Of a stretch of 64,000 nucleotides of DNA, positions 4,173 through 52,390 are shown piece after piece. A program made the translations under genes and the position numbers. The stretch is from an uncultured Anaerolineaceae bacterium (lineage in GTDB: Bacteria; Chloroflexota; Anaerolineae; Anaerolineales; Anaerolineaceae): positions 5,342 through 69,341 of the forward strand of contig CAYOOA010000004.1 of assembly GCA_964405455.1 (NCBI GenBank), in the 5' to 3' direction. Every line of letters starts with the position of its first letter. Within the stretch, counting starts at the first letter, position 1. Below the pieces are notes generated by a model. That model saw only the letters and a list, made by a program, of their open reading frames with translations, did not search any database and had not been told where the DNA came from.

Positions 4173-7100
4173 TTGGCAACCCGACTGAAATCTCTCGAAC
4201 TGCATGGTTATAAGACATTTGCCAGCCGGACGGTATTTGAGTTCCCGGAGCAAATCACCGCCATTGTCGGGCCGAATGGGTCCGGGAAATCCAACATTGC
4301 AGATGCCATCCGCTGGGTGCTGGGAGAGCAATCCTATTCACTGCTGCGCGGGCGGAAAACGGAGGATATGATTTTCTCCGGCTCGGAACAGCGTCCGCGG
4401 GCCGGGATGGCTTCGGCGGCGATTATTTTTGATAATGCAGACGGCTGGCTGCCGATCGACTATTCCGAAGTATCACTAGCCCGGCGTGCTTACCGGGATG
4501 GAAATAATGAATACCTGATCAACAACCAGCGGGTTCGGCTGAAGGAAATCTCAGAGTTGCTGGCTCAATCCGGCCTGGCTGAACGAACCTATACGATCAT
4601 CGGTCAAGGCCTGGTGGATGCAGCGCTCTCGCTGAAGCCGGAAGAAAGACGCCGATTCTTTGAGGAAGCTGCAGGGATTGGTCTCTACAGAAGCCGGCGG
4701 GAGGATGCCCTGAATCGCCTGGAAACCACCAAGCGCAACCTGGAACGGGTGCAGGATATCCTTGTTGAATTAGAGCCTCGCCTGGCGACATTGGAACGAC
4801 AGGCCCGCCGTGCGGCTGAATACGAGCGCATTAAGGCCGATCTACGCGTGCTCTTACGGGATTGGTACGGCTACTACTGGCATCACAGCAATGCAGAACT
4901 GGCGCACGCCCGCGAAACGTTGAAAGTACAGGAAGCCCGGTTGGAGCAAGCCCGCAACCGGATGGAACAGGTGACCACGGAAGTGGAAGCACTTCGGGCA
5001 AGAATGCAAACAGCCCGAATGAGTTTGAATGAATGGCATACACAATCGGCTGAAGTCCACAGACAGTGGGAGCAGGTCAGCCGAAACCTGGCCGTGCTGG
5101 AGGAGCGCCAACGAGCATTAAGCAACAGTCAGGGCGGACTGACAGCGGATTTGACCCGATTATCCGAGGAGGAACAGGTCCAACTCAACCGCCTGGCCAA
5201 CCTGGAGGCGGAGCAGAAACGCCTGCAACAGGAATTGGATGACTCCAACCGGCAATTGGCAGAGGCGCAACAATTAATGCAGATCCGCCAGAAAGAAAGA
5301 GACCGGGTGGACACCTTGCTGCGCGAAGCCCGCCGGGTGCTGGTCAGTCTGGAAACCGGGCAGGTTCAAGGGAAAGCGCACTTATCCGAGGTTGCCAACC
5401 GCCTGGATGGATTACGCCGAACACTTGAGAATTATCGTAATAGCCTAAAAACAGATGAACAGGCGGTTGCACAGGCGCAGACCCTGGTGGAGCGGGCGAA
5501 GACCCACCGCGAGGAGGCTGAAGAAGAACTACATCAATTTGAAGAGGAGCTGGTGGTTCAACGCCGGCAATTGACCAGCCTGGAAAACGAGCGCCGCAAT
5601 TTGCAGGATGGCCGGGCCCGCCTGGAAGCTGACCTGAGTCGCGCCAAAGCCCAACTGGAAGTACTTGAGCAAGCTGAGCGCAGCCTGAGCGGGATGGGAC
5701 AGGGCGCCCGAAACCTGGTCCAGGCGGCCAGGCAGGGAAAATTAAAAGCAGGTATCCGGGCGCTTTCCACCGACCTGGTTGTGCCCCAGGAGCTTGAAAC
5801 GGCTATCGCTGCCGCCCTATCCGATTTACTGGATGGGCTGGTGATTGATCCTGATAACGTTGAGTTGGTTTTGGATTTCCTGGCCAATGGTGACCAGGGG
5901 CGTGCCAATATCGTCACCCGGGATGCCAGGGCTCACTTAATCGATGCACCTCAAGCTGATCCTGACTGCCTGGGTGTGGCATCCCGGTTGGTTAAGGCAC
6001 CGGATGAAGTACAACCGATCCTGGATGTCCTGCTTGGAATGGTCCTGGTGGTGCGCAATCGTGCGGCTGCCCGCAGACTTGCGTCAACATTGCCGGTAGG
6101 CGCGCGCGCGGTCACCTTACAGGGCGAGGTGTATTGGTCAAATGGTATCATTTCAGCCGGTAAGGAGAATCGCGGTGCAGTGGTTGCCAGGCCGCGCCAG
6201 CGGTTGGATTTGCAGGAAGCAGTTCAAAACAGCCAGGCGAACCTGACGGAAAGCCTGACCCAGATCCAATGTGTAGATGGAGCACTGCAACATAGCCGTG
6301 AAATGGCTCAGAAACTGGAACAAGAGACCCGGAATGTATCCAGCCGGGTGAACCAACTTAACCAGGAAGTCCAGCAGGCCACACTAAACCTCGAAAAACT
6401 GCGCCAAAAGATCGAATGGCAGCGCGGCCAGATTGCCGAGGTGGAGAAGCAGATTCGGGCAGCAGAAGAGGACCGCAAAAGGACCCAGGAGCAAATTGAT
6501 TCTGCCGGTGCCAGGATTCAACAGGCCAATGACCAGGTACGCGACCACAACCGCACCCTGGGCGGGTTGCCCCTGGAGGAATTACAAAGCCAGGTGACTC
6601 ACTGGAATACCAGCGTTGCGGTCACCGGTCGGGCTACTCATGAAATCTCCGCCCGGGTGAAGGATGCCCGGCTGGATACAGAGGCCAACCGCCTTCAACA
6701 ACAGACTCTCCGCGAGCGCATCAGCGCCAATTCAAATGCGTTGGGGCAAGCCGAGCGCGAAAAATCGGAATTGCTGCAACAACAAGCCCGGCTGGACGCA
6801 GAAATTGCTGCCTTACAGGTCAAAATTGAACCGGCCGAAGCTGAATTATATGCCCTGGAGCAAGAATACTCCCGCCTGCAGGCCAACCAGGCTGCAGCCC
6901 AGCAAGCCCTGGGCGTGGCAGATCGATATGCCGTCCAGGCACAGACTGAATTGTCTCACCAACGAGACGCGTTGGACAACCTGCGCCGGCGGATTGAAGA
7001 TGATTTTGGGCTGGTGGCTTTTGAATACTCTGAACAGGTGGAAGGGCAGACGACATTGCCTTTTGATGGTATGGTCGAACAATTGCCGCAAATCCATGAA

Positions 7101-37801: not shown

Positions 37802-39280
37802 TTACCTGGTCCTGGCCCGGGCCCGCAGCATGCTCTTCCCGGCGGCTGACACAGCATCCCAGGCAGCCAGGACCTGTTGAATTTCTGCCTGGCTTTCCGG
37901 CAATTCTCCATAGCGGACCCGGATATAGGCCTGGGTTAACAAGTTCACTTCACTGGATTGATTGGGAAAAACATTTACCAGGTTTGGGATAAATTCCAAC
38001 GGCGTGACTGCCTGTGGACGGGCGGATTCCAATTGCTCACATAAATGCATTAATTGCGCATAGATACGACGGATGCGAGCTGCGGCCAGCCAGCGTCCTG
38101 CCCGCCAAATGCGGTTGGCGGCCAGCTGGCGGAAGAAATCCCGGATCCCGATGGAGGGGCCATGCTTTTCCGTGGATGTTTCAGATTCCACCTGCAGGCG
38201 GTGAACCCGATTTTTCCAGGTAATACTGATGATCACAATCAAAATGACCAGGAGCAGAACAAAGCCCAGGTAGATGGATTCCGTCCGGTTAACCAGGCGC
38301 ACAATCCAACTGCTCGGCTGGCTGGATGGTCCCCCTCCAAGACCTTTGAGGAATTGCTGGATTGGGGTGGAAATTTTCTCCAAAGCAGCTGCTATAAATG
38401 CGAGGATTTTTGGAACAACTTCGATCAGCAAGAGCAGGAGCGGGGAGAGGATGAATACAAAAATGGCCGAAAGGGCTGCGATGATGATTAAATAAATCCG
38501 GGCCAGTATCATCCCGACCTGGCCATGGAGAATCCAGGCTAACAGGATGGCCACGCTTACCACCACCAGGGCGGCCAGGATGATTCCCACCGTCCAGCGA
38601 GAACCGAATGCAGGCATCCGACCACCCCTATATTCACTCAGGGAGGCAATCCGGGCAGATGCCATACCGACCAGGGTGCAAAACAAGAAACCATAGAGTT
38701 GGATGAAGGACTCGACCGGGGATGTCCATTGCATGATGACGTTTCCGAGACCGTACAACAGGATCATAAACAATCCGACCTGGAAAGAACTGTAGACATC
38801 GAAGGGATCAACGAGGTCTTTGGCAATGGAAATTCCGCGCCAGGCTAACAACAGGGTAATCAGCAAGCACCAGGTTTCATTCAACCGGCCCGTGGCCTGG
38901 ATAATTGTGGTTACCGGACTGACTGCAATCTGGAAGAGAGAAGATTGGTTTCCAGGGAAAAGAAGAAACTTGAGAGCCAGGATATAGCAGAAGGTCAACC
39001 AACCGATGAAAACCAGGCGCCGGGGAAGGGGTTTCCAGCCTTTACGATTCATCCAGCGGGCAAGCCAATGAGTACCCAACAGGATCAGCGCCATCACGGC
39101 CAGTGCGCCGCCCATTGAAATGACCGGATGAACCAGTAGGATCAGCCAGCTGACACTCCAGGCCAGGTCCATGCCAAACACAGCCAGGGTGGCGAACTCG
39201 CGCCAAAGCCAGGGACGGCCTTCCGTCAACCGGAGGAAAGAGCTGCTACGGGCGGTTGGCATCTGAAGCGGCTCAGGCAT
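37802..39280 (-). CDS. polytopic membrane protein with a C-terminal DUF4129-like domain (TgpA-like but lacking a transglutaminase core)
   Basis: About 10 hydrophobic helices. The C-terminus 'VTPLEFIPNL...AYIRVRYGELPES' is DUF4129-like. I see no Cys-His-Asp transglutaminase motif. ATG 39280 overlaps the DUF58 stop (ATGCCTGA). Confidence 0.65.
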   Translation of the reverse strand: MPEPLQMPTARSSSFLRLTEGRPWLWREFATLAVFGMDLAWSVSWLILLVHPVISMGGALAVMALILLGTHWLARWMNRKGWKPLPRRLVFIGWLTFCYILALKFLLFPGNQSSLFQIAVSPVTTIIQATGRLNETWCLLITLLLAWRGISIAKDLVDPFDVYSSFQVGLFMILLYGLGNVIMQWTSPVESFIQLYGFLFCTLVGMASARIASLSEYRGGRMPAFGSRWTVGIILAALVVVSVAILLAWILHGQVGMILARIYLIIIAALSAIFVFILSPLLLLLIEVVPKILAFIAAALEKISTPIQQFLKGLGGGPSSQPSSWIVRLVNRTESIYLGFVLLLVILIVIISITWKNRVHRLQVESETSTEKHGPSIGIRDFFRQLAANRIWRAGRWLAAARIRRIYAQLMHLCEQLESARPQAVTPLEFIPNLVNVFPNQSSEVNLLTQAYIRVRYGELPESQAEIQQVLAAWDAVSAAGKSMLRARARTR

Positions 39281-40487
39281 GGGCTGGTTCCTGGCGGAAG
39301 GGAAGGTGAATTGCACGAATGCCAGGCAATTCAGGCGGGGGTAAAGAATCTAATGAAACAAGAGTGATGTAAGAACGATAGCGCTTCATCCGTAGAATAG
39401 TCTCAGCAAGATTCTGGCTGACATAGGCTGTCACCAGGACCAGGCTGGCTCCGTAAGGGAGAGAGGGAAGTGACTGAGCCAGAAAGGCTTCAAACAATCC
39501 GGTACGGAAACTTGTGACACCGGCCAGGGCTTGGAGCAGCCTGGCGAGTTGCCCGGGAGTTCGATTGGGCGGGATGCGAAAGGGTTGATCCGAATGGGCG
39601 ATGCAGCCATTGGAGATCAGGCCGACGGAATAGCCGGTTTGAAAGGACTGATAAGCCAGTGTGGCAGTTACTTTTACCAGTTGCTCCAGCATTTCTGCAT
39701 CCGTATCCAGCCAGGGATGGTCCGAGGTGGAAGCGTTCATGCAGAGCACCAGGTGCTGGGAATTGACCGGTTGAAAAACGCGAGTCTGCAAGGAGCCCGT
39801 GCGGGCAGTGGCCGGCCAGTGGATACGCCGAAAGCCGTCTTCGGGGCGGTATTCGCGCACGCCCATGGGACGGTTGGGATCCTCAAACAGTCGACGGCGG
39901 GCGCGCCGGTCGCCAAAAGGATCTTCAGCGTCCATGGGAAAATCGGTCGGCGAAAGCAATTCTGGAAAGACGACCACATAATCCTGGTCCGGATTCTCAA
40001 TCTCTGCTTCAAACAGGCCAAAGCCATCACCTGATTCTAGCAAAACCGGCCCGACCTGGTAAATTCCCCGCTGGCGAAGGAGGAGGGTGTAAGGACGCGA
40101 GATGGATTGATGTGAATTGAGCGAGGTGACATGTACCAGGGTACCCTGCTGGGGAAGGTGGGAAGCACCGAGGACGGATTCATCCTGGGGGGCGATCACC
40201 AACGGCCAACTATCACTGGAACGCAGCCAGGTGAGCGGTACGACTTTCTGGTTCTGGATCTGGATGCGCAGATCCAGGGTTTCTCCCGGGAAACCGCGCC
40301 GGTAATGCCAGAACCGCTGATATTTGACATTTTTCAGTGCAATTTTTCGCCAACGATCGCTGACGAACAACACGGCTGCAACCGCCGCTGTGAAGGCAAT
40401 CAACCAGGGTACATTGAAAATTGCGCCGATGGTGAACACCAGGACCAGGGAGACAGACCAGATTTGCAGCAGGCGATTGCCGCGCAA
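39273..40487 (-). CDS. DUF58 domain protein (vWA-like, MoxR-associated)
   Basis: N-terminal double TM and 'VREYRPEDGFRRIHWPATARTGSLQTRVF', the DUF58 signature. Abuts the moxR stop. Confidence 0.85.
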   Translation of the reverse strand: MRGNRLLQIWSVSLVLVFTIGAIFNVPWLIAFTAAVAAVLFVSDRWRKIALKNVKYQRFWHYRRGFPGETLDLRIQIQNQKVVPLTWLRSSDSWPLVIAPQDESVLGASHLPQQGTLVHVTSLNSHQSISRPYTLLLRQRGIYQVGPVLLESGDGFGLFEAEIENPDQDYVVVFPELLSPTDFPMDAEDPFGDRRARRRLFEDPNRPMGVREYRPEDGFRRIHWPATARTGSLQTRVFQPVNSQHLVLCMNASTSDHPWLDTDAEMLEQLVKVTATLAYQSFQTGYSVGLISNGCIAHSDQPFRIPPNRTPGQLARLLQALAGVTSFRTGLFEAFLAQSLPSLPYGASLVLVTAYVSQNLAETILRMKRYRSYITLVSLDSLPPPELPGIRAIHLPFRQEPAHA

Positions 40488-41423
40488 TCACGCCTCCACG
40501 GGAACCGGAACTGAAGCGACGATATCCCGTACCAATTCCTCCGCGGTCCGCCCGCGGAGCTGAGCCTGGGCGGCTATGATCAGGCGGTGACAGAGAACGT
40601 GGGGTGCCAAAGATTTGACGTCATCTGGCAAAACAAAAGCCCGTCCCTGGATGGCAGCCCAGGCCTGGGATACCTGGTAAAGGGCCATGGTAGCCCGCGG
40701 GCTGGCACCCAGTTGAATATCATGGTTCTGGCGGGTGGCCATCGCAATCCGGACAATATAATCCCTGACGGATTCTTCCACCTTGATTTGCTGGCGCTCC
40801 TTGACCAAGGCCAGTAATTCTTCCGGGGAAGTAACCGGTTGCAGATCCTGCAGCGGATCCAACTCGCGGAATCGTTCCAGGATGGAATTTTCTTCGGCTT
40901 GCGAGGGATACCCGATCACCACGCGCATCATAAAACGGTCCAGTTGCGCTTCCGGCAGCGGGAAGGTACCCTCCAACTCCACCGGGTTCTGGGTGGCAAG
41001 GACGAAGAAAGGCCGGGGTAGTTTGCGCGTCACGCCATCTGCCGTTACCTGGCGCTCCTGCATGGCCTCCAGCATGGAGGACTGGGTGCGCGGCGTAGCC
41101 CGGTTGATTTCATCAGCAAGGACAACCTGTCCCATGATGGGGCCCGGCCTGAATTCGAACTCCTGGATCTTTTGATTGAACCAACTGATGCCGGTGACAT
41201 CGGAGGGAAGCAAATCCGGCGTGAATTGGATGCGCTGAAAAGAACAACCAAGTGACGCTGCCAGGGCGCGGGCCAACGTTGTTTTGCCGGTTCCGGGGAC
41301 ATCTTCGATCAATACATGCCCTTCGCAGAACAAGGTGGAAAGCAGGTGATGGATGACGGTCTGTTTCCCGACGATGACTTTCTGGATGTTGTTGGTGATT
41401 TTCTCAGCTATGGATTGAATCAA
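40488..41423 (-). CDS. MoxR-family AAA+ ATPase
   Basis: 'GHVLIEDVPGTGKTTLARALA', 'VLADEINRATPRTQSSMLEAMQERQVT' and 'VLATQNPVELEGTFPLPEAQLDRF'. Confidence 0.93.
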   Translation of the reverse strand: MIQSIAEKITNNIQKVIVGKQTVIHHLLSTLFCEGHVLIEDVPGTGKTTLARALAASLGCSFQRIQFTPDLLPSDVTGISWFNQKIQEFEFRPGPIMGQVVLADEINRATPRTQSSMLEAMQERQVTADGVTRKLPRPFFVLATQNPVELEGTFPLPEAQLDRFMMRVVIGYPSQAEENSILERFRELDPLQDLQPVTSPEELLALVKERQQIKVEESVRDYIVRIAMATRQNHDIQLGASPRATMALYQVSQAWAAIQGRAFVLPDDVKSLAPHVLCHRLIIAAQAQLRGRTAEELVRDIVASVPVPVEA

Positions 41424-41441: not shown

Positions 41442-42512
41442 TTATCCCAGGCGGATGATTGCGCCGCAATATTCGCATTGGATGGAATCCTGCCCGCGCA
41501 GGATGGCCTGCTTGATCGTTCCGCCACAATTCGGACAGATGGTGGGCGCATTTTTAACTTTGTCAACAGCAGATTGATCAATAGCCACGGCGCGGTCCCG
41601 GGTGATATCCCCGGAAAGAACTCGGTTGATCAGGGCTTTCCATTCGTTGCAGTCCTGGCCTTTGAGATGAAATTGCATTTGTTGATAGGGCGCACCACTG
41701 GCGAAACGTAAATCCAGGAAATCTTCATTTTTAAAAACACCTTGCTTGGTGGCATTTGTTTCCTGGATCATGGTCAGAGCCACCTCGGCAGCCAGCACCT
41801 GTACTTTTTTGCGCTCCGTGGTGATAAAAAGGACTTTCTTGGTGGCTACTTCTTCGTTCTGTTCAAACAGGAGCCTTTGATCGGTCAGAAATAAAATGCC
41901 TTCCGGATCATCCCTGTCTTCGCGATTGTCGCGCGTCCAGATGGCCTTGACTGCCATGATCAACGCTTCCGTGGGCAGCAGCTTGAAGCAGGCCTGCTCC
42001 AGAGAAGTGTAAGCCCACTCAACTTCATCCAGGTGGTGGAAGAGCTTGCCGGCTTCACTTTCCAGGCTGTCATACATCCCATTGATGGTCGATTCTGCGG
42101 CAGAGGCCTTTTCTTCCAGGTTACTGCATTCCGTTTCCAACTGGGTGAGCATGGGAAGAGCCAGGGCTGGGCTGTGCACGGCGGCAGCCGCCTGACCCAG
42201 GCGGCTTTCCAGCGGACGCAGGGCAGCTTCCAATAAAAAGACTTGCTGATTGATCTGGATGTTGACGGATTGGCGAAGCGGCAGCCAGCGTTTCAGTAAA
42301 TCAGAGGCCTGGCCTTCCAGCCCTTTCTCGAAGGGGAAATTCCGATTCCGGAGAGCGGTGATCCGCCCCGTCAGCCCCTTGATTTTGGTATCCAGGTCTT
42401 CAACCTGATCCAACACACTGGTTAATTTGACCTGTTTTTGAAGTTTTTCAAAAGACCAACGTACATCGTTCATTTTGGCGTTAAGTTGATCCTGGGGGGA
42501 TTGAGTGGTCAT
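41442..42512 (-). CDS. coiled-coil protein with a PH/GRAM-like domain and a C-terminal Cys4 zinc ribbon
   Basis: About 190 aa of N-terminal helical heptad-like sequence, a 'GILFLTDQRLLFEQ' bacterial-PH/GRAM-type strand motif, and C-terminal 'CPNCGG...CEYCG'. The stop is 18 nt before moxR. Confidence 0.6.
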   Translation of the reverse strand: MTTQSPQDQLNAKMNDVRWSFEKLQKQVKLTSVLDQVEDLDTKIKGLTGRITALRNRNFPFEKGLEGQASDLLKRWLPLRQSVNIQINQQVFLLEAALRPLESRLGQAAAAVHSPALALPMLTQLETECSNLEEKASAAESTINGMYDSLESEAGKLFHHLDEVEWAYTSLEQACFKLLPTEALIMAVKAIWTRDNREDRDDPEGILFLTDQRLLFEQNEEVATKKVLFITTERKKVQVLAAEVALTMIQETNATKQGVFKNEDFLDLRFASGAPYQQMQFHLKGQDCNEWKALINRVLSGDITRDRAVAIDQSAVDKVKNAPTICPNCGGTIKQAILRGQDSIQCEYCGAIIRLG

Positions 42513-42660: not shown

Positions 42661-43461
42661 TTGCGAAAGGTCACCGCAGCCGTACTGATTGTGTATGTTG
42701 GCCTGACCATTTATGCGGTCCTCTCTGTTATTGCCGGATGGCCGATGGGATCGTGGCTGACACCCTTAAATACCCTGGCCGGTTTTGCTTTTTCTGTCCT
42801 TCACGCCGGCCAGCGTTACGGTTGGAAATCCGCCCTGGTTTTGCTTTTAAGTGTGTTTGTCATCAGCCTGGGATTGGAAAGCCTGGGCGTCGCCACCGGG
42901 TGGGTGTACGGACCTTATCATTACACAGATCAATTGGGGGTGAAATTTCTCGGTTTGGTACCCCTTTTAATCCCGGTGGCGTGGTTTATGATGATGTATC
43001 CGGCCACGGTTTTTGCTGACCAAATTGTTCTTCGGAAAAACCGGGATGGAATCTGGATGCGAATCATGGCTGCTGCCCTGGCCGGTTTTATTATGACTGC
43101 CTGGGATGTTGCCATGGATCCGATGATGGTCAAGGCCGGCCACTGGGTCTGGGAAGTGCAGGGGGCTTTCTTTGGCGTGCCGGTGCATAACTATATTGGC
43201 TGGTGGCTGACCTCGTTTCTTTCGGTTGGTGTATTCCTGCTGGTGACGATGAAGATGAAACTCCCCGAAAATGAGATTCCCACCCGGTGGACAGTCATCT
43301 CATATGCGACCCAGGCAGGAGCAACGATTGTTACAGATGTCTTTATTGGTTTATCAGGGGCAGGAATGGCCGGTTTCTTTGCCATGCTGCCCTGGATCAT
43401 CATCGGATGGATTTTTGGAGGGGAAAAAGGAGGGCAGGATGCTGGAAAAGATCAACCTTGA
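42661..43461 (+). CDS. polytopic membrane protein, possibly DUF422/CruF-like (carotenoid biosynthesis protein family)
   Basis: Seven or more hydrophobic helices. 'LESLGVATGWVYGPYHYTD' resembles the G-x-P-F/Y-G-x-Y motif of that family. TTG start behind GGAGG. Confidence 0.45.
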   Translation: MRKVTAAVLIVYVGLTIYAVLSVIAGWPMGSWLTPLNTLAGFAFSVLHAGQRYGWKSALVLLLSVFVISLGLESLGVATGWVYGPYHYTDQLGVKFLGLVPLLIPVAWFMMMYPATVFADQIVLRKNRDGIWMRIMAAALAGFIMTAWDVAMDPMMVKAGHWVWEVQGAFFGVPVHNYIGWWLTSFLSVGVFLLVTMKMKLPENEIPTRWTVISYATQAGATIVTDVFIGLSGAGMAGFFAMLPWIIIGWIFGGEKGGQDAGKDQP

Positions 43462-44212
43462 TTTGAAGATGAGCAAGAAAGAATACAAGGAACACCTGGC
43501 CACCCTGGGGCCGCAGTTGACTTTGCTGCAAAGGGCCTGCTGGGAGAACGGTGTTCCGGTCAGCATCATTTTTGAAGGCTGGGATGCGAGCGGCAAAGGC
43601 ACCTCGATCAACAACCTGGTGCAGTTCATGGACCCGCGCGGATTCCGCATTCACCCGATCAAGGGCGCAACCGACCTGGAAGCCAGTATGCCCTGGTTGT
43701 GGCGGTTCTGGCGGAGGCTGCCAAACTACGGCGAGGTTGCCATTTTTGACCGGAGTTGGTACGGCCGGGTGCTGGTGGAACGGGTGGAGAAGTTAACCCC
43801 GGCTGACCAATGGCGGCCGGCATATCAGAACATCGTGGACTTTGAACGCACCCTGGTTGATGACGGGATGACCATTGTCAAGTTCCTGCTGCACATCAGC
43901 AAGGCGGAACAGAAAAAACGCTTCAAGCGCCTGGAAAAAGATCCCCTGCAAAGCTGGCGGGTGGCCAAAGAGGACTGGGAACACCACCGGAAATATGATG
44001 AATACCTGGTTGCTTACGAGGAAATGCTCGAAAAAACCGAGACCGAATGGGGACCCTGGACGATCATCGAGGCGACCGACCGGAACTGGGCTCAATTCCG
44101 AATCCTGGAGACGGTCAGCCGGCGGTTGGGTGAAGCTTTAACCGCCCGCGGAAAACCACTGCCGAGCCTGGAACCATCCGGAGCCAGGAATTCTGTCGGA
44201 GAGGAGGGATGA
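43439..44212 (+). CDS. polyphosphate kinase 2 (single-domain PPK2), copy 1
   Basis: 'IFEGWDASGKGT' Walker A, 'LWRFWRRLP' and 'IFDRSWYGRVLVERVE'. ATG 43439 lies behind GGAGGG. The longer 43271 frame is an artefact overlapping the membrane protein gene. Confidence 0.88.
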   Translation: MLEKINLDLKMSKKEYKEHLATLGPQLTLLQRACWENGVPVSIIFEGWDASGKGTSINNLVQFMDPRGFRIHPIKGATDLEASMPWLWRFWRRLPNYGEVAIFDRSWYGRVLVERVEKLTPADQWRPAYQNIVDFERTLVDDGMTIVKFLLHISKAEQKKRFKRLEKDPLQSWRVAKEDWEHHRKYDEYLVAYEEMLEKTETEWGPWTIIEATDRNWAQFRILETVSRRLGEALTARGKPLPSLEPSGARNSVGEEG

Positions 44213-44215
44213 GCC

Positions 44216-44965
44216 ATGTTGGAACGAGTTGATCTGACCCAGGTACTGACAAAAGAAGAATATGAAACGAGACTGATTCCCCTGCAAGAAAAGTTGCTGC
44301 TTTTCCAGCATGAGCTATACATACGCAAACGGGCCATGGTAATTGTTTTTGAGGGTTGGGATGCAGCTGGAAAAGGCGGAGCCATCCGCCGTATCACAGA
44401 ACGCCTGGACTCGCGAGGCTATGAAGTTTTCCCGATTGCTGCGCCGGCCGGCGAAGATCGCACACACCATTACCTGTATCGGTTTTGGCGACGCCTGCTT
44501 CCACCCACCGAGAAGCAAATTCAAATATTTGACCGGAGCTGGTACGGGCGGGTGTTGGTGGAACGGGTGGAGGGTTTCTGCAATCAACCTGCCTGGAAGC
44601 GGGCCTACCGGGAGATGAATGAATTCGAGCATCAATTGGTTTCAGCCGGATTCATCCTGGCAAAGTTTTGGCTGCACATCAGCCCGGAAGAACAGGAGAT
44701 GCGCTTTACCGATCGGCAGGCGAATGCAGCCAAAAGCTGGAAATTGACCGAAGAAGACTGGCGCAACCGCGAAAAATGGCCGCTCTACCTGGAGGCGGTG
44801 GAGGAAATGCTGGTAAAAACCAGTACGCTCACCGCTCCCTGGACCGTAGTGGAGGCGAACGATAAGTATTTCGCACGGATCAAGGTGCTGGAGACAGTCG
44901 TTGGCGCCATCCAGGCCGGCCTGAATATTTCACCTCCCGATGGCAAAGGCAAAAAGAAGAAGTAA
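44216..44965 (+). CDS. polyphosphate kinase 2 (single-domain PPK2), copy 2
   Basis: 'VFEGWDAAGKGG', 'LYRFWRRLL' and 'IFDRSWYGRVLVERVE'. Starts 3 nt after the copy 1 stop. Confidence 0.9.
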   Translation: MLERVDLTQVLTKEEYETRLIPLQEKLLLFQHELYIRKRAMVIVFEGWDAAGKGGAIRRITERLDSRGYEVFPIAAPAGEDRTHHYLYRFWRRLLPPTEKQIQIFDRSWYGRVLVERVEGFCNQPAWKRAYREMNEFEHQLVSAGFILAKFWLHISPEEQEMRFTDRQANAAKSWKLTEEDWRNREKWPLYLEAVEEMLVKTSTLTAPWTVVEANDKYFARIKVLETVVGAIQAGLNISPPDGKGKKKK

Positions 44966-44980: not shown

Positions 44981-45013
44981 CCAACAGCCCGCTGTCTTCG
45001 AGCGGGCTGTTGG
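44981..45013. terminator. bidirectional terminator hairpin between the convergent PPK2 and CHAD genes
   Basis: CCAACAGCCCGCT-gtcttcg-AGCGGGCTGTTGG (13-bp perfect stem). Confidence 0.7.
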
Positions 45014-45017
45014 TCGA

Positions 45018-46055
45018 TTAAATTTCCTCTGGTGCAGGTGGGGGAACAACCTCGCCGGGTGAAGGTGGCTGTGGGGGATAAATGATCAGGCGGGATATGA
45101 GCGGCCCTGCGGTGGTGCGGCTCAAGTTCTCCCAGAGGCCTTTCGTCAGGGCAGCATCCCAATCCACGATGAATTCTTCGTATAGCCTGGTTCTGGCTGC
45201 GGCTCGGTCGGCCTGGAAGGCAAGCAGACCGGGTACCAGGAGGTTGAACGGGTCGGAACGGCCGTAAAACCAGGCGGTACGCTGCTTTTCCTCTTCCATG
45301 AAAACTGGCAGATAATCCGCCCAGACATCACAATCGTGCAACAAACCCAATTGATCCTGGAACTTGCGGCAGGTATTCTGGGACGGCTTTAATTCATCAG
45401 GATAGAGCGGGGCAAAGAGTTCAAGCGTATAGCGAAGATGCTTGGCTGTAATCCGCTGGGCATGGAGATCGAGGATGTTGGCAGGATCGCGGATCAGTTC
45501 CGAACGAGAGAAGAAATCAACCAGGCGGGAGGAAATGACTGAGTGAGCCAGGTCGTACAATTCGGCAGCAGGTGGAATTTGATCGTCTTGCAGCCCCGCC
45601 AGGGGATCGAGGAGCGTGTGCATATCCGCAGCCGTGCCGGAGGCTTCAAACTCCGCCAGGGTTTTTAGGACCCTGGTCTGTAATTTGGCCCGGCGCTGGT
45701 CCAGGCGCAGGATCAAGCGCCGGATACCCGGCACGAGCTGGCTGGTCGTGTGGATCTGATTGAGAAATTCCTGAAGGCTGACGATCTGTACATCCAGATC
45801 GCGGGCGGCACCCAGGGAGCGGGTGATGCGGCGAATGGGCTGGCCCCAGGAATTGATTTTCCTGGCGGGCAGGGCATTAATAAAAACCGGCAGGGCATTC
45901 CTCAACCGGCGCGAAGCCACACGCATACGGTGGATGTATTCTATGTCCTGCCCCTGGCGAACGCCTTCGATCTCCCCCGTCAACGCATCCAGGTGGCGAA
46001 GAATAAGCTTCGCTCCGAAGATGGCAATCGGTGTTGGCTCGGGAGACTTTTTCAT
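45018..46055 (-). CDS. stand-alone CHAD domain protein
   Basis: 'IHRMRVASRRLRNALPVF' and 'LHAQRITAKHLRYTLELF' match the conserved-His/Arg helical repeats of CHAD. No CYTH domain. ATG 46055 is chosen, 10 nt after the upstream stop. Confidence 0.82.
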   Translation of the reverse strand: MKKSPEPTPIAIFGAKLILRHLDALTGEIEGVRQGQDIEYIHRMRVASRRLRNALPVFINALPARKINSWGQPIRRITRSLGAARDLDVQIVSLQEFLNQIHTTSQLVPGIRRLILRLDQRRAKLQTRVLKTLAEFEASGTAADMHTLLDPLAGLQDDQIPPAAELYDLAHSVISSRLVDFFSRSELIRDPANILDLHAQRITAKHLRYTLELFAPLYPDELKPSQNTCRKFQDQLGLLHDCDVWADYLPVFMEEEKQRTAWFYGRSDPFNLLVPGLLAFQADRAAARTRLYEEFIVDWDAALTKGLWENLSRTTAGPLISRLIIYPPQPPSPGEVVPPPAPEEI

Positions 46056-46065
46056 CGATGATCGA

Positions 46066-46755
46066 TCAGGATTTTGGCAGGAAAGGCCGGATGTTTCGGC
46101 GCAACTCTTCATTCACAGTAGAGACAGCCCGGGAGGCATCAATAACAGCGAAGTTATATTCACTGGCCATTGCGTCGAACTGCTCGATCATACGGGTTTG
46201 GTAGAGAACAAAACTGTCATACATGTTATCTGCATGGGTAATATCCATGCCAGCTTCCCAGTAGTTGAATCCACGGCCGTGAACAATCCGTGAGACCAGA
46301 GAATTCATATCGGTGCGCAGGTAGAGCACAAGATCTGGTTTCAAGGCGAAGCCATAAACCTTCCGCGCCCAGCGTGGATCGGCGCCGCGAACGACATCTC
46401 GGGCTACAATGGAGTAAAAATAACGATCTGAAAGGACAATAAAGCCTGCCCGCAAAGCCGGGATTATCTGGTTTTCCAGCCGATCGGCAAAATCAGTGGC
46501 ATAAAAAAGGCTCATCGTCAACTTGCCCAGGGTGTGGCCTTGCTTTGCGGCATCCAGACCAGGCTGAGTGAGGGGGGAGCGGCGTAAGCCTGTATCGGAA
46601 ACCGCATAACCCTGTTCCTCCAGCCATTGGCGCAGCATGGTGATTTGCGTGGAGCGGCCAACACCATCCGTACCTTCCAATACAATCAAGCGGCCTGGGT
46701 AATCAGTCAGGCTGCGGTAAGGGAACCCTGCTCCGTAAAATTCTGCCTGTGTCAT
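46066..46755 (-). CDS. thymidylate-kinase-fold protein, paralog B (Walker-A Lys replaced by Arg)
   Basis: 'LIVLEGTDGVGRSTQ' (GRS instead of GKS/T), 'FYATDFADR' and 'VLSDRYFYS'. ATGA overlap with paralog A. Confidence 0.72.
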   Translation of the reverse strand: MTQAEFYGAGFPYRSLTDYPGRLIVLEGTDGVGRSTQITMLRQWLEEQGYAVSDTGLRRSPLTQPGLDAAKQGHTLGKLTMSLFYATDFADRLENQIIPALRAGFIVLSDRYFYSIVARDVVRGADPRWARKVYGFALKPDLVLYLRTDMNSLVSRIVHGRGFNYWEAGMDITHADNMYDSFVLYQTRMIEQFDAMASEYNFAVIDASRAVSTVNEELRRNIRPFLPKS

Positions 46756-47501
46756 TTACTGCCTCCTTCGGCCTGGGTCTGATTTGCTGGTTCTTCAATT
46801 CGCCGGGAGGGGCGCCGAGGAGAGAGGGTAGGATGTGGCAGTCCTTTCCAACCCCGCAGGGCTTGCTTAACCGTTTGCCGGACAATTTTTTGCTGTTCTT
46901 CGACTGCAAGTGTGCCGTCGACGACCGTGAAATTGAATTCCGGTACCATTAAATCATATTGATCGAGGATGCGGCCTTGAAACAGGCGGAAACTGGTGAC
47001 CTTGTTATCCGACAAACCCAGATCCATCCCGGCCTCGTAATACTTGATCTCTGCGCGTGAGGAGGTGATCCGGTCAACGGCCACGTCCAGGGGAACGCGG
47101 AAATAGAAGGCGATGTCCGGCTGGGTGGCGAAGGAATACAGGTTGCGCACCCATTCAGGATCGACGCCGCGGGCTACGTCACGGGCAAAGGCGGTGAAGG
47201 CGAAACGATCGGCAAGGACGATGACACCGGCTTTCAGCAAGGGTAAGATATGATTTTCCCAACGATCGGCAAAATCTGTTGCCTGGATGAGAGAAAAAGT
47301 AGTGGGGGTAAAAAGGCGATCCTTTTTACCAAACCGGGTGGTGGATTTAACAAGGTCAGAAGAGTTCCACTCGGAAAAATAGACTGAAAGGCCGTGCGAC
47401 AGCAGGTATTTATGCAGCAAATCAATCTGGGTTGATTTCCCACTGCCGTCAATGCCTTCCACAATAATTAATTTTCCGCTGTAATTGGCTGGTTTTAACA
47501 C
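46752..47501 (-). CDS. thymidylate-kinase-fold protein, paralog A
   Basis: 'LIIVEGIDGSGKSTQ', 'IQATDFADR' and 'VLADRFAFT'. GTG start 6 nt after GAGGG. Has a basic/Pro-rich C-terminal tail. Confidence 0.72.
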   Translation of the reverse strand: MLKPANYSGKLIIVEGIDGSGKSTQIDLLHKYLLSHGLSVYFSEWNSSDLVKSTTRFGKKDRLFTPTTFSLIQATDFADRWENHILPLLKAGVIVLADRFAFTAFARDVARGVDPEWVRNLYSFATQPDIAFYFRVPLDVAVDRITSSRAEIKYYEAGMDLGLSDNKVTSFRLFQGRILDQYDLMVPEFNFTVVDGTLAVEEQQKIVRQTVKQALRGWKGLPHPTLSPRRPSRRIEEPANQTQAEGGSK

Positions 47502-47600
47502 AGGACACCCTCAAAAACTGGATTCATATACGAGTTTGATTAATTATACAACAGAGTATGGTTGACTGAATCACAGCCTTGAGCTGGAAAATATCCATCA

Positions 47601-47623
47601 AAAAAGCCCGGAAGGGCTTTTTT
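47601..47623 (-). terminator. intrinsic terminator after phoU
   Basis: AAAAAGCCC-ggaa-GGGCTTTTT. On the minus strand the stem is followed by TTTTTT. Confidence 0.8.
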
Positions 47624-47630
47624 GATGATT

Positions 47631-48308
47631 TTATTCACTATCTTCGTCGTCTGCCTGTTCCAACTCCAATAATTCACCAGTGACAATAAAGATCGTGCGT
47701 TCGCAGATATTGGTAACCCGGTCAGCCATGCGCTCCAGGTTGTGGACGACCCACATTAAAAGATTGGCATGATCAATGGTTTCAGGGTTGGCTATCATGG
47801 ATGTGACGATATGGTTGGAAATCCGCACGTAAAGACCGTCAACAGCATCATCTTCCATGGGGATCGTGCTGGCGGCTGCAGTATCTTCCGAGATAAACGC
47901 ACCTAGCGCCCGGTGAAGCATGGAGACGGCTGAATCCGCCATCAGGCTGATATCGCGGATCGGGATGGGAATCTCGTAATTCTCGAGGTTGATGACCACT
48001 TTCCCAATCCCCTTGGCATAATCACCCATGCGCTCCAGTTCAGTGATGATTTCCAGGATGGCAGTCAATTTACGCAAATCCCTGGCCATGGGTTGCTGGG
48101 TGGCGATGATGATGAGAATGTTGTTTTCGATGGCAAACCTTTTTTCGTTGATCAGGTGGTCATCGTTGTAAATCTTCCTGGCGAGATGAATGTCGCGCAA
48201 GCGCAGTGCTTCGATGGATTTCAGTACAGCCTGTTCAACCATACTGCCGAGGAGAAGTACTTCATCCTGTAATTGATGTATCTGGCGTTCCAATGTATCA
48301 CGTGGCAT
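47631..48308 (-). CDS. phoU: phosphate signalling complex protein PhoU
   Basis: Two PhoU repeats ('ELERMGDYAKGI' and 'NLERMADRVTNI'). Located downstream of pstB. Confidence 0.93.
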   Translation of the reverse strand: MPRDTLERQIHQLQDEVLLLGSMVEQAVLKSIEALRLRDIHLARKIYNDDHLINEKRFAIENNILIIIATQQPMARDLRKLTAILEIITELERMGDYAKGIGKVVINLENYEIPIPIRDISLMADSAVSMLHRALGAFISEDTAAASTIPMEDDAVDGLYVRISNHIVTSMIANPETIDHANLLMWVVHNLERMADRVTNICERTIFIVTGELLELEQADDEDSE

Positions 48309-48403
48309 TATATTATTTTCTCCTCAACTCTTTTTCATCATCCTATTCACTGAGCCATATGATTACAGCTTACCATCTTAATATACTACAAGATTTGATA
48401 AAT

Positions 48404-49228
48404 CTATCCAAACCGACCTGTAACATAATCCTCTGTGCGTTTATTGGAGGGATTTGTAAAAATAATCTGGGTTCGATCAAACTCGATCAGGCTGCCTGAG
48501 CGGGTTTCGTCAATCATCATCATGGCAGTAAAATCAGAAACGCGGGCTGCCTGCTGCATATTATGAGTAACGATGATGATGGTATAACTTTTAGCCAGGT
48601 CATGCATTAATTCTTCGATACGTAATGTTGAAATTGGATCCAGGGCAGATGCAGGTTCATCCATCAGGATTATTTCTGGTTGGACTGCCAGGGCGCGGGC
48701 GATGCATAAGCGCTGCTGCTGTCCACCTGATAGGGATGTCCCGGATTGATGCAATTTATCCTTAACCTCATCCCATAATGCGGATTGCTTGAGGCTGCTT
48801 TCTACAATTCCATCCAGGTCGGAACGATTGCGGATGCCGTATAAACGGGGGCCATAGGCTACATTGTCGTAGATCGATTTTGGAAAGGGATTCGGTCGTT
48901 GAAATACCATTCCCACGCGGCGGCGGATGTCGACCACGTCAACACCGGGTGAGAAAATATTCATACCATCCAATAAGATAGAACCCTCGATATGCGCGCC
49001 AGGGGTCAGGTCGTTCATACGGTTAAAGGACCTAAGAAGCGTGGACTTTCCACATCCGGACGGTCCGATAATGGCAGTGATTTTATTTTCTAGGATGTTC
49101 AAGTTGATCGTGTTTAATGCGCGAAATTTTCCATAAAATACGGAGAGGCTCTGAACCTCCATCTTCACGCGTTTTTGATCAATTGAAGGCAAAATCTGAG
49201 TCTGGACAGATTGCAGGTTTATCTGCAT
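48404..49228 (-). CDS. pstB: phosphate ABC transporter ATP-binding protein
   Basis: '[12 protein letters not shown]', '[15 protein letters not shown]' and '[12 protein letters not shown]'. The true start may be the internal Met ('MEVQSL'). Confidence 0.94.
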
Positions 49229-49230
49229 GG

Positions 49231-50175
49231 CTAACCTCTTAGTTTTTGTTTACGAATATTGATCCACACCCGGGCCAGGATGTTTGTCGACAGAACCACT
49301 ATCAACAGTACCAGGGCAACCGCCCAGGATTGTTCGATCCGCTCAGGGTAGGGTTGTTGGGCATACTTCCATAGAGTTAATGGGAGTGAATCGATGGGTG
49401 ACCCGAAGATGCGCTTTAGGATTTCAAAGATGCTTTGATGATTTGTAACTCCGCTCTGAATGATTGCGCCAAGATCGTAGCGCTCATTTCCGAGCGTAGT
49501 AAATAATAATGGTGCAGTTTCTCCGGCTGCCCGAGCGACAGCAAGGAGAACACCCGTGATAACGCCATCCAGGGCGGCAGGCAATAGGACACTGAGGGAT
49601 GTTTTCCATTCGGGAGCGCCAAGCGCCAGAGATGCCTCGCGAAGTGATCCTGGAACCAGCTTGAGCATTTCCTCCGTGGTTCGGATGATCGTGGGAAGCA
49701 TCAAAATTGACAACGCAGCAGCCCCTGCCAGGGCCGAATAATGACCCTGGGGTTTGACAATCAGGGCATAACCGAATAAACCGACAACGATGGAGGGTAC
49801 ACCCGCGAGCACATCTGTACTGAAGCGCAGGACAACACCCAGCATAGTATTCGGATGGCGGGAAGCATAAAATGCCGCCAGGACACCGGGAATAAATGCC
49901 AGGATGGTTGCAAGGAGGGTTACAACCAACGTACCTTCGATCGCGTGCAGGACCCCGCCGCCTTGAATCCCCATTGGCCGAGGCAGATGGATAAAGAAAT
50001 CCAGGTTGATGGATTTTCCTCCCCGAACGACGATGTATCCTATGATCCAGAATAAGGGTACCAGGGCCAGAAGAGTCAACACCCCGGAAATACTCAGCAT
50101 GAAGGAATTGGTGAGTTTGCGCTGATTCTTACGCCTGGTGACGCCTTGTTGCAGCAATTCTTTATATTCGGTCAT
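49231..50175 (-). CDS. pstA: phosphate ABC transporter permease PstA
   Basis: Six-TM permease with the EAA-like loop '[14 protein letters not shown]'. Operon position. Confidence 0.9.
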
Positions 50176-51194
50176 GCCCTAACCTCCCCGCTAGTTTTTC
50201 GGGCGACACGCCAAACCAGCAGGCGAGCCAGGATATTTAAGATCAAGGTCAGGGCGAAAAGCAGGAAGCCAATTTCGACAAGCGAAGAAGTGTGGAGTTG
50301 TGATAAGGCCTCGCCAAATTCGTTGGCAATGATGCTTGCCATGGTGTAACCCGGACGGAGGAGTGAGAGTGAGCCTTCAATGCTGTTTCCGATTACCATG
50401 GTAACAGCCATTGTTTCGCCCAGGGCGCGGCCCAACCCAAGAATGATGGCACCCAGTATTCCGGAAAGACCGTAAGGCAAAAGAACCTGCCAAATTGTCT
50501 CCCATTGAGTTGCTCCGAGGGCCAGGGCAGCTTCACGTTGTGAATACGGGATGGCTTTCAAAACATCCCGGCTGACGGCTGCAATGGTGGGAATGATCAT
50601 AATGGCCAATATCAAACTGGCAGCCAGGCGTGAAGATCCGCTTTGCGGGATGGAGCCAGTAAAGAATAAGTTGATGCCTGGAATGTTGGAAAAAATGAAT
50701 GATAACGCATTACCTAATGGAGCAACCACGGTTGGAAGAAAAACAAAAATTCCCCATAAACCATAAATTACGCTGGGAATGGCGGCCAATAATTCCACCA
50801 ACCAGTTGAGTGGAGTTTGCAGCCATTCCGGGCATAATTCAGCCAGGAAGATGGCGATGCCCAAGCCAAGCGGGAGGGCAAAGATCAGGGCTACGAATGA
50901 TGTAATCAGGGTTCCGTAAATAAACGGCCAGGCTTGAAAATTGTCATGAACTGGATCCCAGGATGGATCAAGGGTAGGCAGAAGAAACCTGATACCGATT
51001 TCGTTCCTTGCCTGGGAAGAACCCTGCCATAATAAACCACCAATAGCCAGCATCAAGATTAAAATAAAGATAGACGCAAGGATGAGTAATCCCTTCCAGG
51101 GATGATCACCATGATCCAGAAATTGGGCGATCTTCCCGGATAAGCGTTTTGCTGGGGTGCCAGAATTTTCCATCATGATCCAATCTATATGCAC
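50172..51194 (-). CDS. pstC: phosphate ABC transporter permease PstC
   Basis: Permease with 'REAALALGATQWET'. ATGA overlap with pstA. Confidence 0.9.
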   Translation of the reverse strand: MHIDWIMMENSGTPAKRLSGKIAQFLDHGDHPWKGLLILASIFILILMLAIGGLLWQGSSQARNEIGIRFLLPTLDPSWDPVHDNFQAWPFIYGTLITSFVALIFALPLGLGIAIFLAELCPEWLQTPLNWLVELLAAIPSVIYGLWGIFVFLPTVVAPLGNALSFIFSNIPGINLFFTGSIPQSGSSRLAASLILAIMIIPTIAAVSRDVLKAIPYSQREAALALGATQWETIWQVLLPYGLSGILGAIILGLGRALGETMAVTMVIGNSIEGSLSLLRPGYTMASIIANEFGEALSQLHTSSLVEIGFLLFALTLILNILARLLVWRVARKTSGEVRA

Positions 51195-51247
51195 AGGTTC
51201 TGGAGGCGCAGGGGACAGCGCCTCCAGAACCTTAAAGTTTTATGCTC

Positions 51248-52390
51248 TTACTTTACAGGGGTTCCGTTACAGGTGACCTCTCCCAGTTTGGCAATTACCT
51301 GGTCGCGAATTGCAGTTGGCAGAGTGGAGTAGCCTAGATCTGCAGCAACCTTTCCGGCGGCCGGATCTGTCAAAGTCCAGGTCAGGTATTCGATGATTTT
51401 CTTTGCTTTTACGCAATCGGACATGGATTTGGTGTGCAGGATGATGTAGGTGTATCCGGTAATCGGCCAGCTGCCTTCACCAGGACCATCGACGATGGTT
51501 GCATTAAGATGCTCATCGAAAGCTGAAGCAAAATCAGACATGGCTGATTCGATGCTGGCAGCATTGACAGTGACTGTTTTGCCGGCTTTATTAATCAGAG
51601 CGGCCATGGAGAGCTTGTTTGAAATGGCGAAGGAGCTTTCCACGTAACCAATGGAGTTCTTGGTGTTGATAACTGCGGCGGCCACACCCTGGTTGCCCTT
51701 GCCACCGACACCATTGCCCGCTTTGTCAACCGGCCATTCAACTGTAGATGCACCCCCGGCTGTCCAATCCTGGCTGAAAGAAGTCAGGGCCTTGGTGAAA
51801 ATTTCAGTGGTTCCTGATCCATCCGAGCGATGGACGGCGGTAATGGTGGCGTCCGGCAGATAACCATCCAGACCGGGGTTTAATTTAACAATGGCAGGAT
51901 CGTTCCATTTATTTACCTTGCCATTATAAATATCGACGAGAGTCTGGCGATCCAGAACCAACGCGGGCACCTTGGCGTCTTTGGGGAAATCCTTGGCCCA
52001 AACGATATTGTAAATGACCGATACACCGCCAGCCAGCATGGGATACATCTGCAGGTCCTTGCCCTGGGTGTATTGATCCGCATTGAGCAGGGAGTCTGAG
52101 CCGGCAAAATCGAGGGTATTATCCAGGATGCCTGTTTTACCAGCCCCTGAACCAGTGCCCTGGTAATTGATCACAACGGAAGGATCAACATACTGATAAG
52201 CGTAGGTCCACTGGGTGTAGACGGGAAGCGGGAAAGTAGCTCCACCCGCATTGATCTGGATTGAACCAGGGGCCGCAGATGATTGTTCTCCCGTAGAAGC
52301 GGTGGGAGAGGCAGTAGGTGCAGTGCAGGCTGAGAGAAGCAAACTGACAGCCATCACCAAAATAAAAGAGAAATATACAGGTCGACGCAT
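51248..52390 (-). CDS. pstS: phosphate-binding lipoprotein PstS
   Basis: Lipobox 'LLLSAC', then 'GGATFPLPVY', 'YQGTGSGAG' and 'RSDGSGTT'. GGAG SD. Confidence 0.93.
   Translation of the reverse strand: MRRPVYFSFILVMAVSLLLSACTAPTASPTASTGEQSSAAPGSIQINAGGATFPLPVYTQWTYAYQYVDPSVVINYQGTGSGAGKTGILDNTLDFAGSDSLLNADQYTQGKDLQMYPMLAGGVSVIYNIVWAKDFPKDAKVPALVLDRQTLVDIYNGKVNKWNDPAIVKLNPGLDGYLPDATITAVHRSDGSGTTEIFTKALTSFSQDWTAGGASTVEWPVDKAGNGVGGKGNQGVAAAVINTKNSIGYVESSFAISNKLSMAALINKAGKTVTVNAASIESAMSDFASAFDEHLNATIVDGPGEGSWPITGYTYIILHTKSMSDCVKAKKIIEYLTWTLTDPAAGKVAADLGYSTLPTAIRDQVIAKLGEVTCNGTPVK

Follow-up and report, generated by a model that had tools for sequence, protein, structure and literature searches.

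The 64,000-nucleotide stretch analysed here (the window), positions 5,342 to 69,341 of contig CAYOOA010000004.1 from an uncultured Anaerolineaceae bacterium, carries three closely packed minus-strand genes, which encode two related proteins of the thymidylate kinase (Tmk) fold, protein A and protein B, and a CHAD protein. By analogy with an archaeal enzyme, these three proteins most probably make up a bacterial PPK3 module, with A as the catalytic, B as the regulatory and the CHAD protein as the polyphosphate-binding partner. PPK3 is the heteromeric polyphosphate kinase of Sulfolobus acidocaldarius (Hofmann et al., J Biol Chem 2026, PMC12995831; bioRxiv 2024, 10.1101/2024.08.28.610084). Statements below on activity, stoichiometry and reaction direction are carried over from that enzyme (SaPPK3); family membership, subunit assignment, conservation and context come from the present analysis. 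A first-pass annotation of the window had proposed that A and B are an active kinase and a pseudo-kinase acting together on nucleotides and polyphosphate (polyP), and had taken such a pair to be uncharacterised. The pair itself has been demonstrated experimentally for the homologous Sulfolobus proteins (PMC12995831). The claim that it is uncharacterised was mistaken, since the family was described in the 2024 preprint and in the 2026 paper, and the structure 2plr/5h70 is that of a member.

In S. acidocaldarius the genes form the operon sixA-ppx-saci_2019-saci_2020-saci_2021, in which Saci_2017 is SixA, Saci_2018 is Ppx and Saci_2021 is the CHAD protein (PMC12995831). Saci_2019 (cPPK3) is the catalytic subunit and a homologue of STK_15430 (PMC12995831). 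Saci_2020 (rPPK3) has neither dTMP kinase (dTMPK) nor polyphosphate kinase activity, and the specific activity goes up about 6-fold when it is present in an a2b2 complex (PMC12995831). The reaction is reversible, with an about 50-fold preference for ADP + polyP -> ATP. The stated basis for the inactivity of rPPK3 is the loss of the arginine of the DRX motif, and the residues that bind ATP and ADP are highly conserved across c- and rPPK3 (PMC12995831). Like Saci_2020, Saci_2019 has no dTMPK activity, which is found in the unlinked Saci_0893, and a separate canonical dTMPK was present in all PPK3 genomes that the paper examined (PMC12995831).

Comparison with the S. acidocaldarius locus, which was fetched for this purpose, showed the same order of genes in both, with A, B and CHAD corresponding to Saci_2019, Saci_2020 and Saci_2021. 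In both cases a subunit with the full set of catalytic motifs is paired with a degenerate one, the genes lie in a polyP context, and the residues of the dTMP site are replaced. The two systems also differ. Protein B has an arginine in its Walker A motif and a DRY motif, whereas Saci_2020 has a Walker lysine and DGY. The unit in the window lacks ppx and sixA, follows a pstSCAB-phoU operon and faces two PPK2 genes, and its host is a mesophile-type Chloroflexota bacterium rather than a thermoacidophilic archaeon.

Profile searches placed A and B in PF02223 (Thymidylate_kin) with 68 and 71 bits, above the gathering score; the two proteins are 42% identical to each other. Against TIGR00041, the NCBIfam equivalog of dTMP kinase, A scored 75.5 and B 71.2 bits, both under the curated cut-off of 83.25 bits, and neither protein matched PF03976 (PPK2) at E <= 0.01. 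The best match of both in the PDB is 2plr/5h70 (4e-58 for A, 6e-40 for B), annotated as 'probable thymidylate kinase' ST1543/STK_15430 of Sulfurisphaera tokodaii and a cPPK3 homologue. The next hits, to canonical Tmk structures, were far weaker, with E-values of about 1e-14 (A) and 1e-11 (B). Saci_2019 and protein A share 50% identity (E = 4e-68).

The motifs that the first-pass annotation had quoted, namely the P-loop, DR[YF], A-RDV.RG and Y[YW]EAGMD, were read correctly, as was the exchange of the Walker lysine for arginine in B. With canonical Tmk (PF02223, TIGR00041) the two proteins share the P-loop kinase fold with its P-loop, DRX motif and lid. The arginine of the canonical F..(A/S)(D/S)R motif, however, aligns with an invariant Phe in both subunits, and the glutamine of AYQ with an invariant Arg, so that A-RDV.RG stands where Tmk has AYQG. 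The role of the replaced positions in dTMP binding is taken from the Tmk literature and from a statement in PMC12995831. Moreover, A and B have in common an extra lid segment, Y[YW]EAGMD, and their polyP context contrasts with the holB/DNA replication context of canonical Tmk, which is a homodimer and not, as predicted for A and B, a heteromeric pair. STK_15430/ST1543 (2plr, 4nzy, 4rzx, 5h70) shares the ATDFxDR, A-RD..RG and EAGxD segments; being of the catalytic type, with an intact Walker lysine, it can serve as a structural proxy for A but not for B. No third Tmk-like open reading frame (ORF) was found within the 64-kb window.

Trees were built by neighbour joining from cluster representatives and fetched loci, including Sulfolobales loci. 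Catalytic-type (c-type) and regulatory-type (r-type) sequences together were monophyletic with respect to two canonical Tmk outgroups (A. aeolicus and T. thermophilus) with 96% bootstrap support. All c-type proteins, among them A, STK_15430, Saci_2019 and the Nitrososphaera c subunit, grouped with 77% support, and the bacterial r-type proteins with 76%, B falling in the r-type clade. An exhaustive search with B gave only 262 clusters (50% identity level) at E <= 1e-30. On sequence grounds A and B belong to the PPK3 family, already characterised in Sulfolobus, and are no dTMP kinases. A part in anti-phage defence was considered and rejected: PADLOC gave only weak and generic matches to one candidate family, limited to the P-loop stretch in A and amounting to 33.6 bits over residues 23-167 in B.

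Catalytic and regulatory subunits

Protein A (46752-47501, minus strand, 249 aa from a GTG start) contains an intact Walker A motif (GSGKS, within EGIDGSGKST), the DRF motif (VLADRF) and the sequence EWNSS. GSGKS, DRF and the basic residues R107, R111, R144, lid R149 and K153 of A are 99-100% conserved among c-type proteins, the Walker lysine being present in 100% of them (78/78 of the loci described below) and EWNSS being invariant. We predict that A is the catalytic subunit, cPPK3.

Protein B (46066-46755, minus strand, 229 aa) is altered at several of these positions. Its Walker A motif reads GVGRS (EGTDGVGRST), with arginine for lysine; the equivalent of lid R149 is deleted, that of K153 is D or N, and the c-specific EWNSS is replaced. 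The DRX motif is kept as DRY (VLSDRY). Arginine at the Walker position together with DRY (EG.D..GRS) was found in all of the 120 closest orthologues of B (at least 70% identity), and in a column census the Walker arginine occurred in 99% of bacterial r-type sequences. Among the 80 loci whose neighbourhood was analysed, the r gene had this arginine in 78 and an internal stop in none. GxGR is likewise present in r subunits from Metallosphaera sedula, S. tokodaii and Nitrososphaera; Saci_2020 has Lys, and in other lineages the position is occupied by C, H or V.

The DRX arginine is kept in 99% of bacterial r-type proteins, DGY being confined to Sulfolobales r subunits. Bacterial r proteins further keep the arginines equivalent to R80, R107, R111 and R144 of A, most of which the Sulfolobales r proteins have lost (DGY, Q, W). 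Judged from these alignments, what marks the r lineage in general is the exchange of the Walker lysine for arginine, not the loss of the DRX arginine. The latter would explain the inactivity of Sulfolobales r subunits only and not that of the bacterial r subunits examined. We predict that B is the regulatory subunit, rPPK3, and that it is non-catalytic or catalytically crippled.

Protein B is under strong constraint, and its evolution is as slow as that of A. As synonymous sites are saturated (proportion of synonymous differences, pS, about 0.75), non-synonymous divergence (dN) was compared between genes instead of dN/dS. In comparison with an 87%-identical relative, B (dN 0.098) and A (0.104) had diverged less than PhoU (0.172) and the CHAD protein (0.331). 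Mean pairwise identity across 77 loci was 59% for r and 65% for c. An AlphaFold2 model of B (predicted local distance difference test score, pLDDT, 87; predicted template modelling score, pTM, 0.84) had its best fold match in 5h70, with a template modelling (TM) score of 0.84/0.92-0.94 and a root-mean-square deviation of 1.7-2.0. Canonical Tmk came next with TM scores of about 0.72-0.75.

A further feature of bacterial r proteins is an N-terminal extension (residues 1-20 of B) with a conserved YGxGFPY motif, in which G8 is present in 93% and P12 in 99%. The motif is absent from c-type proteins and from Sulfolobales r proteins and has low pLDDT in the monomer model of B. This r-specific extension is a candidate interface element.

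Distribution and gene neighbourhood

An r-type profile, run against the GTDB species representatives, matched at least 593 genomes. Neighbourhoods were counted for the best 80 of these matches, genes being mapped by six-frame phmmer and phyla assigned from record titles. The 80 loci comprise 33 from Chloroflexota (mostly Anaerolineae), 30 from Acidobacteriota, 6 from 'delta'/Desulfobacterota and 3 from Armatimonadota, the rest being 2 Binatia, 2 Bacteroidota/Kapaibacteria, 1 Poribacteria and 3 unclassified. Among the matches listed, the closest metagenome-assembled genome is that of an Anaerolineaceae bacterium (87%) and, of the cultured organisms, Thermanaerothrix daxensis GNS-1 (75%) comes nearest.

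A c-type gene lies directly upstream of r on the same strand in 78 of the 80 loci, representing at least 7 phyla, and one exception is due to a contig edge. This degree of conservation puts the arrangement far beyond chance. The neighbours that recur in bacteria are the partners known from Sulfolobus: CHAD within 3 kb in 63 loci, Ppx-GppA within 5 kb in 32 and a SixA-like histidine phosphatase within 5 kb in 26. PhoU was found within 3 kb in 25 loci, by inspection mostly those of Chloroflexota, and PstB within 10 kb in 32. The association with CHAD and PhoU to which the first-pass annotation had drawn attention is thus conserved in related genomes. Its link to PPK2 holds at this locus but is not general, as PPK2 occurs within 10 kb in only 8 of the 80. 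The complete order seen in the window, phoBR-pstSCAB-phoU and c-r-CHAD opposed to PPK2-PPK2-Caroten_synth, is limited to the close relatives L001-L003.

The c and r genes are also found naturally fused. A c+r fusion of 460 aa is present in Alicyclobacillaceae (P0121), and fusions of 650-696 aa combine c, r and a Ppx-GppA domain III/HD (P0151, P0157 and P0184). The Walker residue of the fused r domains is H or V, not R. The c+r fusions support a physical and functional coupling of the subunits.

Other arrangements were seen in the course of the scan. At L022 the c-r-CHAD genes lie between two pst/phoU sets, pstB-phoU upstream and an inverted phoU-pstBACS downstream. Just downstream of CHAD, 12 of the 80 loci (L019, 11862-13463, is an example) encode a fusion of a metallophosphoesterase with a SAM hydroxide adenosyltransferase (PF12850 with PF01887/PF20257). 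In P0215, P0246, P0252, P0256 and P0214, PPK3-like Tmk domains are fused to SPX and APH/DUF2252, or to an MFS transporter and APH/DUF2252. SPX is a eukaryotic phosphate/inositol-pyrophosphate sensor domain, and these fusions may therefore be eukaryotic PPK3-like proteins. P0202 and P0248/P0274, with the Walker lysine intact and the DRX motif lost, were considered as archaeal rPPK3 and rejected, being bacterial tandem Tmk-like pairs in non-polyP contexts. Tandem Tmk-like pairs at L083 (321-1699) and L084 (6001-7358) have one member in which the Walker lysine is intact and DRX is lost (NKY or EQY). Their contexts, UDG/CN_hydrolase and NiFe-hydrogenase/rpiB-glyA-nrdR, are unrelated to polyP.

Proposed mechanism and alternative explanations

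The third gene of the unit (45018-46055, minus strand, within an ORF of 45018-46112) encodes a CHAD protein of 345 aa if translated from the ATG at 46055, a start that agrees with the 337-aa orthologue in a relative. It matches PF05235 with E = 1e-47 over profile positions 3-227 of 228. No pairwise similarity was detectable between this protein and Saci_2021, which is a very divergent CHAD. CHAD domains bind polyP (PMC6537752), and we predict that the protein is the polyphosphate-binding partner of A and B.

By analogy with SaPPK3, B would assemble with A, probably into an a2b2 heterotetramer, and boost the activity of A. The complex would catalyse ATP + polyPn <-> ADP + polyPn+1, probably favouring ADP + polyP -> ATP. 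The CHAD protein would bind polyP and, as tether or regulator, keep the enzyme or its regulation at the polymer. A PPK3 function of the bacterial homologues is predicted on this basis.

The two PPK2 genes on the plus strand may extend the scheme. They lie 3 nt apart in tandem, at 43439-44212 (257 aa from the ATG at 43439; the orthologue in L001 has 255 aa) and at 44216-44965, both match PF03976, and both have intact Walker A and B motifs. Each encodes a single-domain PPK2, and the pair is nearest to the catalytic C-terminal domain of PA3455 (3czp), a class II polyP:AMP phosphotransferase (PAP); the protein from 44216-44965 matches residues 262-493 of 3czp with 3e-110. The pair may be a split or heteromeric PAP-like enzyme. 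Such PPK2s would make ADP from AMP and polyP, giving, together with PPK3, the sequence AMP -> ADP -> ATP. The genes are context at this locus, however, and not a conserved part of the unit.

An analogy between PPK3 and the two-domain class II PPK2 was made in PMC12995831. Both are polyP-dependent nucleotide kinases in which an inactive and an active P-loop kinase module would be combined for oligomerisation and activation. They belong to different branches of the P-loop kinases, and the modules are fused in class II PPK2 and encoded by separate genes here. Class II PPK2 phosphorylates AMP, whereas SaPPK3 phosphorylates ADP.

Several observations weigh against assigning A, B and CHAD to a PPK3 module of the Sulfolobus kind. 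The only biochemically characterised PPK3 is the archaeal Sulfolobus enzyme. PPK1 and PPK2 are absent from most PPK3 genomes (PMC12995831), and two PPK2 genes are present at this locus. Protein B is closer to Saci_2019 (39% identity) than to Saci_2020 (28.5%). Of the 12 basic positions that are conserved among c-type proteins it retains 8, and it keeps the DRX arginine, whose loss PMC12995831 gives as the reason for rPPK3 inactivity, and may therefore not be inactive in the same way as rPPK3. Finally, monophyly of all r subunits had a bootstrap value of 25%. This low value is due to the Sulfolobales r proteins being on a very long branch; the exchange of lysine for arginine and the gene order, both of them shared, speak for a single origin of all r subunits.

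Alternatively, the r subunit may be no dead scaffold but a ligand-sensing or second catalytic subunit. It would then bind ATP/ADP, polyP or both and determine in which direction the reaction runs, or catalyse a different step such as AMP to ADP. Besides the almost universal DRX arginine, bacterial r proteins keep the c-conserved arginines R92, R119, R123 and R156, most of which the Sulfolobales r proteins have lost, and r is nearly as conserved as c. On the other hand, the Walker lysine, the lid arginine R149 and K153 are altered together in r, and EWNSS is replaced. From what holds for P-loop kinases in general, arginine in place of the P-loop lysine normally abolishes phosphotransfer and would leave nucleotide binding intact, and the presence of C, H or V at the same position elsewhere points to a loss of catalysis rather than to new chemistry. 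We consider a sensing or second catalytic r subunit distinctly improbable. A broader proposition holds that bacterial r is an allosteric nucleotide/polyP sensor or a second catalytic site built on an Arg-for-Lys P-loop, that the Anaerolineae PPK3 and the PPK2s behind pst-phoU form a polyP -> ADP -> ATP salvage module tied to phosphate uptake, and that PPK3, in view of the at least 593 species representatives, is a major bacterial polyP enzyme. To this combination we would give a small chance.

The pair might also act as a polyP-dependent kinase with another acceptor or donor, such as GDP, other nucleoside diphosphates, nucleoside monophosphates or a non-nucleotide compound. The 50% identity of A to Saci_2019 leaves some room for this, and the adjacent PAP-like PPK2s already cover the step from AMP to ADP. 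Since the residues that bind ATP and ADP are highly conserved in c- and rPPK3 (PMC12995831), and the c-type motifs do not vary among the archaeal and bacterial proteins compared, we regard a different substrate as very unlikely.

It might be asked whether A or B, or both, could be a true thymidylate kinase, housekeeping or alternative, with an incidental polyP neighbourhood. This would be in keeping with the PF02223 match and with the database names 'dTMP kinase', and STK_15430 was, according to the preprint, first reported as an unusual thymidylate kinase (10.1101/2024.08.28.610084). The scores under the TIGR00041 cut-off, the replaced dTMP-site residues, the lack of dTMPK activity in Saci_2019 and Saci_2020 as opposed to Saci_0893 (PMC12995831) and the linkage to CHAD, Ppx, SixA and Pst conserved in the 80 loci make it barely credible. 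That B is a functionless, decaying duplicate of A, for which the replaced Walker lysine would be the sole support, is refuted for practical purposes by the arginine fixed in 120/120 orthologues and 78/80 loci, the absence of frameshifts and internal stops, a dN as low as that of A and the conserved N-terminal motif.

Layout of the locus and implications

The ORF list and the sequence bear out the coordinates, lengths and junctions of the three genes given by the first-pass annotation. A GAGGG Shine-Dalgarno sequence (47512-47508) precedes the GTG of the protein A gene at 47501. The stop of this gene and the start of the protein B gene overlap in ATGA, with GAAGGAGG upstream of the overlap, and the TGA of the protein B gene is followed by a 10-nt gap and the ATG of the CHAD gene. 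Pfam matches identified PhoU upstream of the unit (phoU, 47631-48308), followed by pstB, pstA, pstC and pstS (operon 47631-52390, minus strand) and a PhoR/PhoB-type pair, and likewise identified both PPK2 genes converging on the unit. Between the CHAD stop and the PPK2 stop lies a 13-bp hairpin (44981-45013), probably a bidirectional terminator.

An intrinsic terminator, reported before as a hairpin behind phoU, was found 3' of the phoU stop at 47595-47628 (minus strand), with a 15-bp stem and a T-run; hairpins at the equivalent position were seen in several Anaerolineae loci. Downstream of it, a TATAAT -10 hexamer (ttgTATAAT, 47543-47548, minus strand) is the candidate operon promoter. A consensus promoter scan did not call this hexamer because its -35 region is weak, and by eye a TATAAT, often TGnTATAAT, was seen in most of 25 Anaerolineae spacers between phoU and cPPK3. 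The terminator would insulate the c-r-CHAD unit from pstSCAB-phoU, and the unit would be transcribed from its own TATAAT. TTAAC repeats 22 nt apart are present upstream of pstS, with no equivalent upstream of the protein A gene. No convincing Pho box was found for the unit, either upstream of the protein A gene or in the 25 spacers, where the conserved element is the -10 hexamer. The phosphate control that had been proposed for the unit is suggested by its adjacency to pst-phoU; a strong terminator lies in between, and the unit has a TATAAT of its own.

Some of the spacers have a structure of their own. The spacer of L010 (461 nt) contains about 10 tandem repeats, each about 21 nt long (cccttcgacgggctcagggac), which sit between the phoU terminator region and the TATAAT. 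In L012, L013, L016 and L024 the TATAAT lies within an inverted repeat (GGCTTGATATAAT...ATATCAAGCC) followed by a T-run, so that terminator and -10 element overlap.

Other genes in the vicinity are less readily connected with polyP. A gene for a PF04240 'carotenoid biosynthesis protein' (membrane protein; 42661-43461, plus strand) overlaps the start of the first PPK2 gene by about 23 nt and accompanies the PPK2 pair in the close relatives L001-L003, an odd partner for polyP enzymes. The product of a further gene (41442-42512) is a coiled-coil protein of 356 aa that has a zinc ribbon at its C terminus and matches no family; in the same position L001 has a 355-aa ORF without a Pfam hit. This gene adjoins a minus-strand set (37802-41423) for a MoxR-type AAA ATPase (AAA_3), a DUF58 protein and a DUF4129 membrane protein. 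Searches for ppx, sixA and ppk1 found none within the 64-kb window.

In the main text of the paper and of the preprint, bacterial PPK3 members are described as few and Chloroflexota are not mentioned (PMC12995831; 10.1101/2024.08.28.610084). New with respect to the text of PMC12995831 are the exchange of the Walker lysine for arginine as hallmark of r, the at least 593 bacterial species and the Anaerolineae version directly behind pstSCAB-phoU. In the literature PPK3 figures as a mainly archaeal enzyme; here, at least 593 bacterial species representatives were found to carry the c/r pair. Very probably, thousands of sequences that databases list as 'dTMP kinase' are subunits of polyphosphate kinases, and the exchange of lysine for arginine in the Walker A motif offers a simple sequence marker of the regulatory subunit. 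Wastewater sludge and soil, in which the cycling of polyP is important for the removal of phosphorus, are rich in Chloroflexota and Acidobacteriota. The position of the genes behind pst-phoU suggests a link between phosphate uptake and polyP/ATP buffering.

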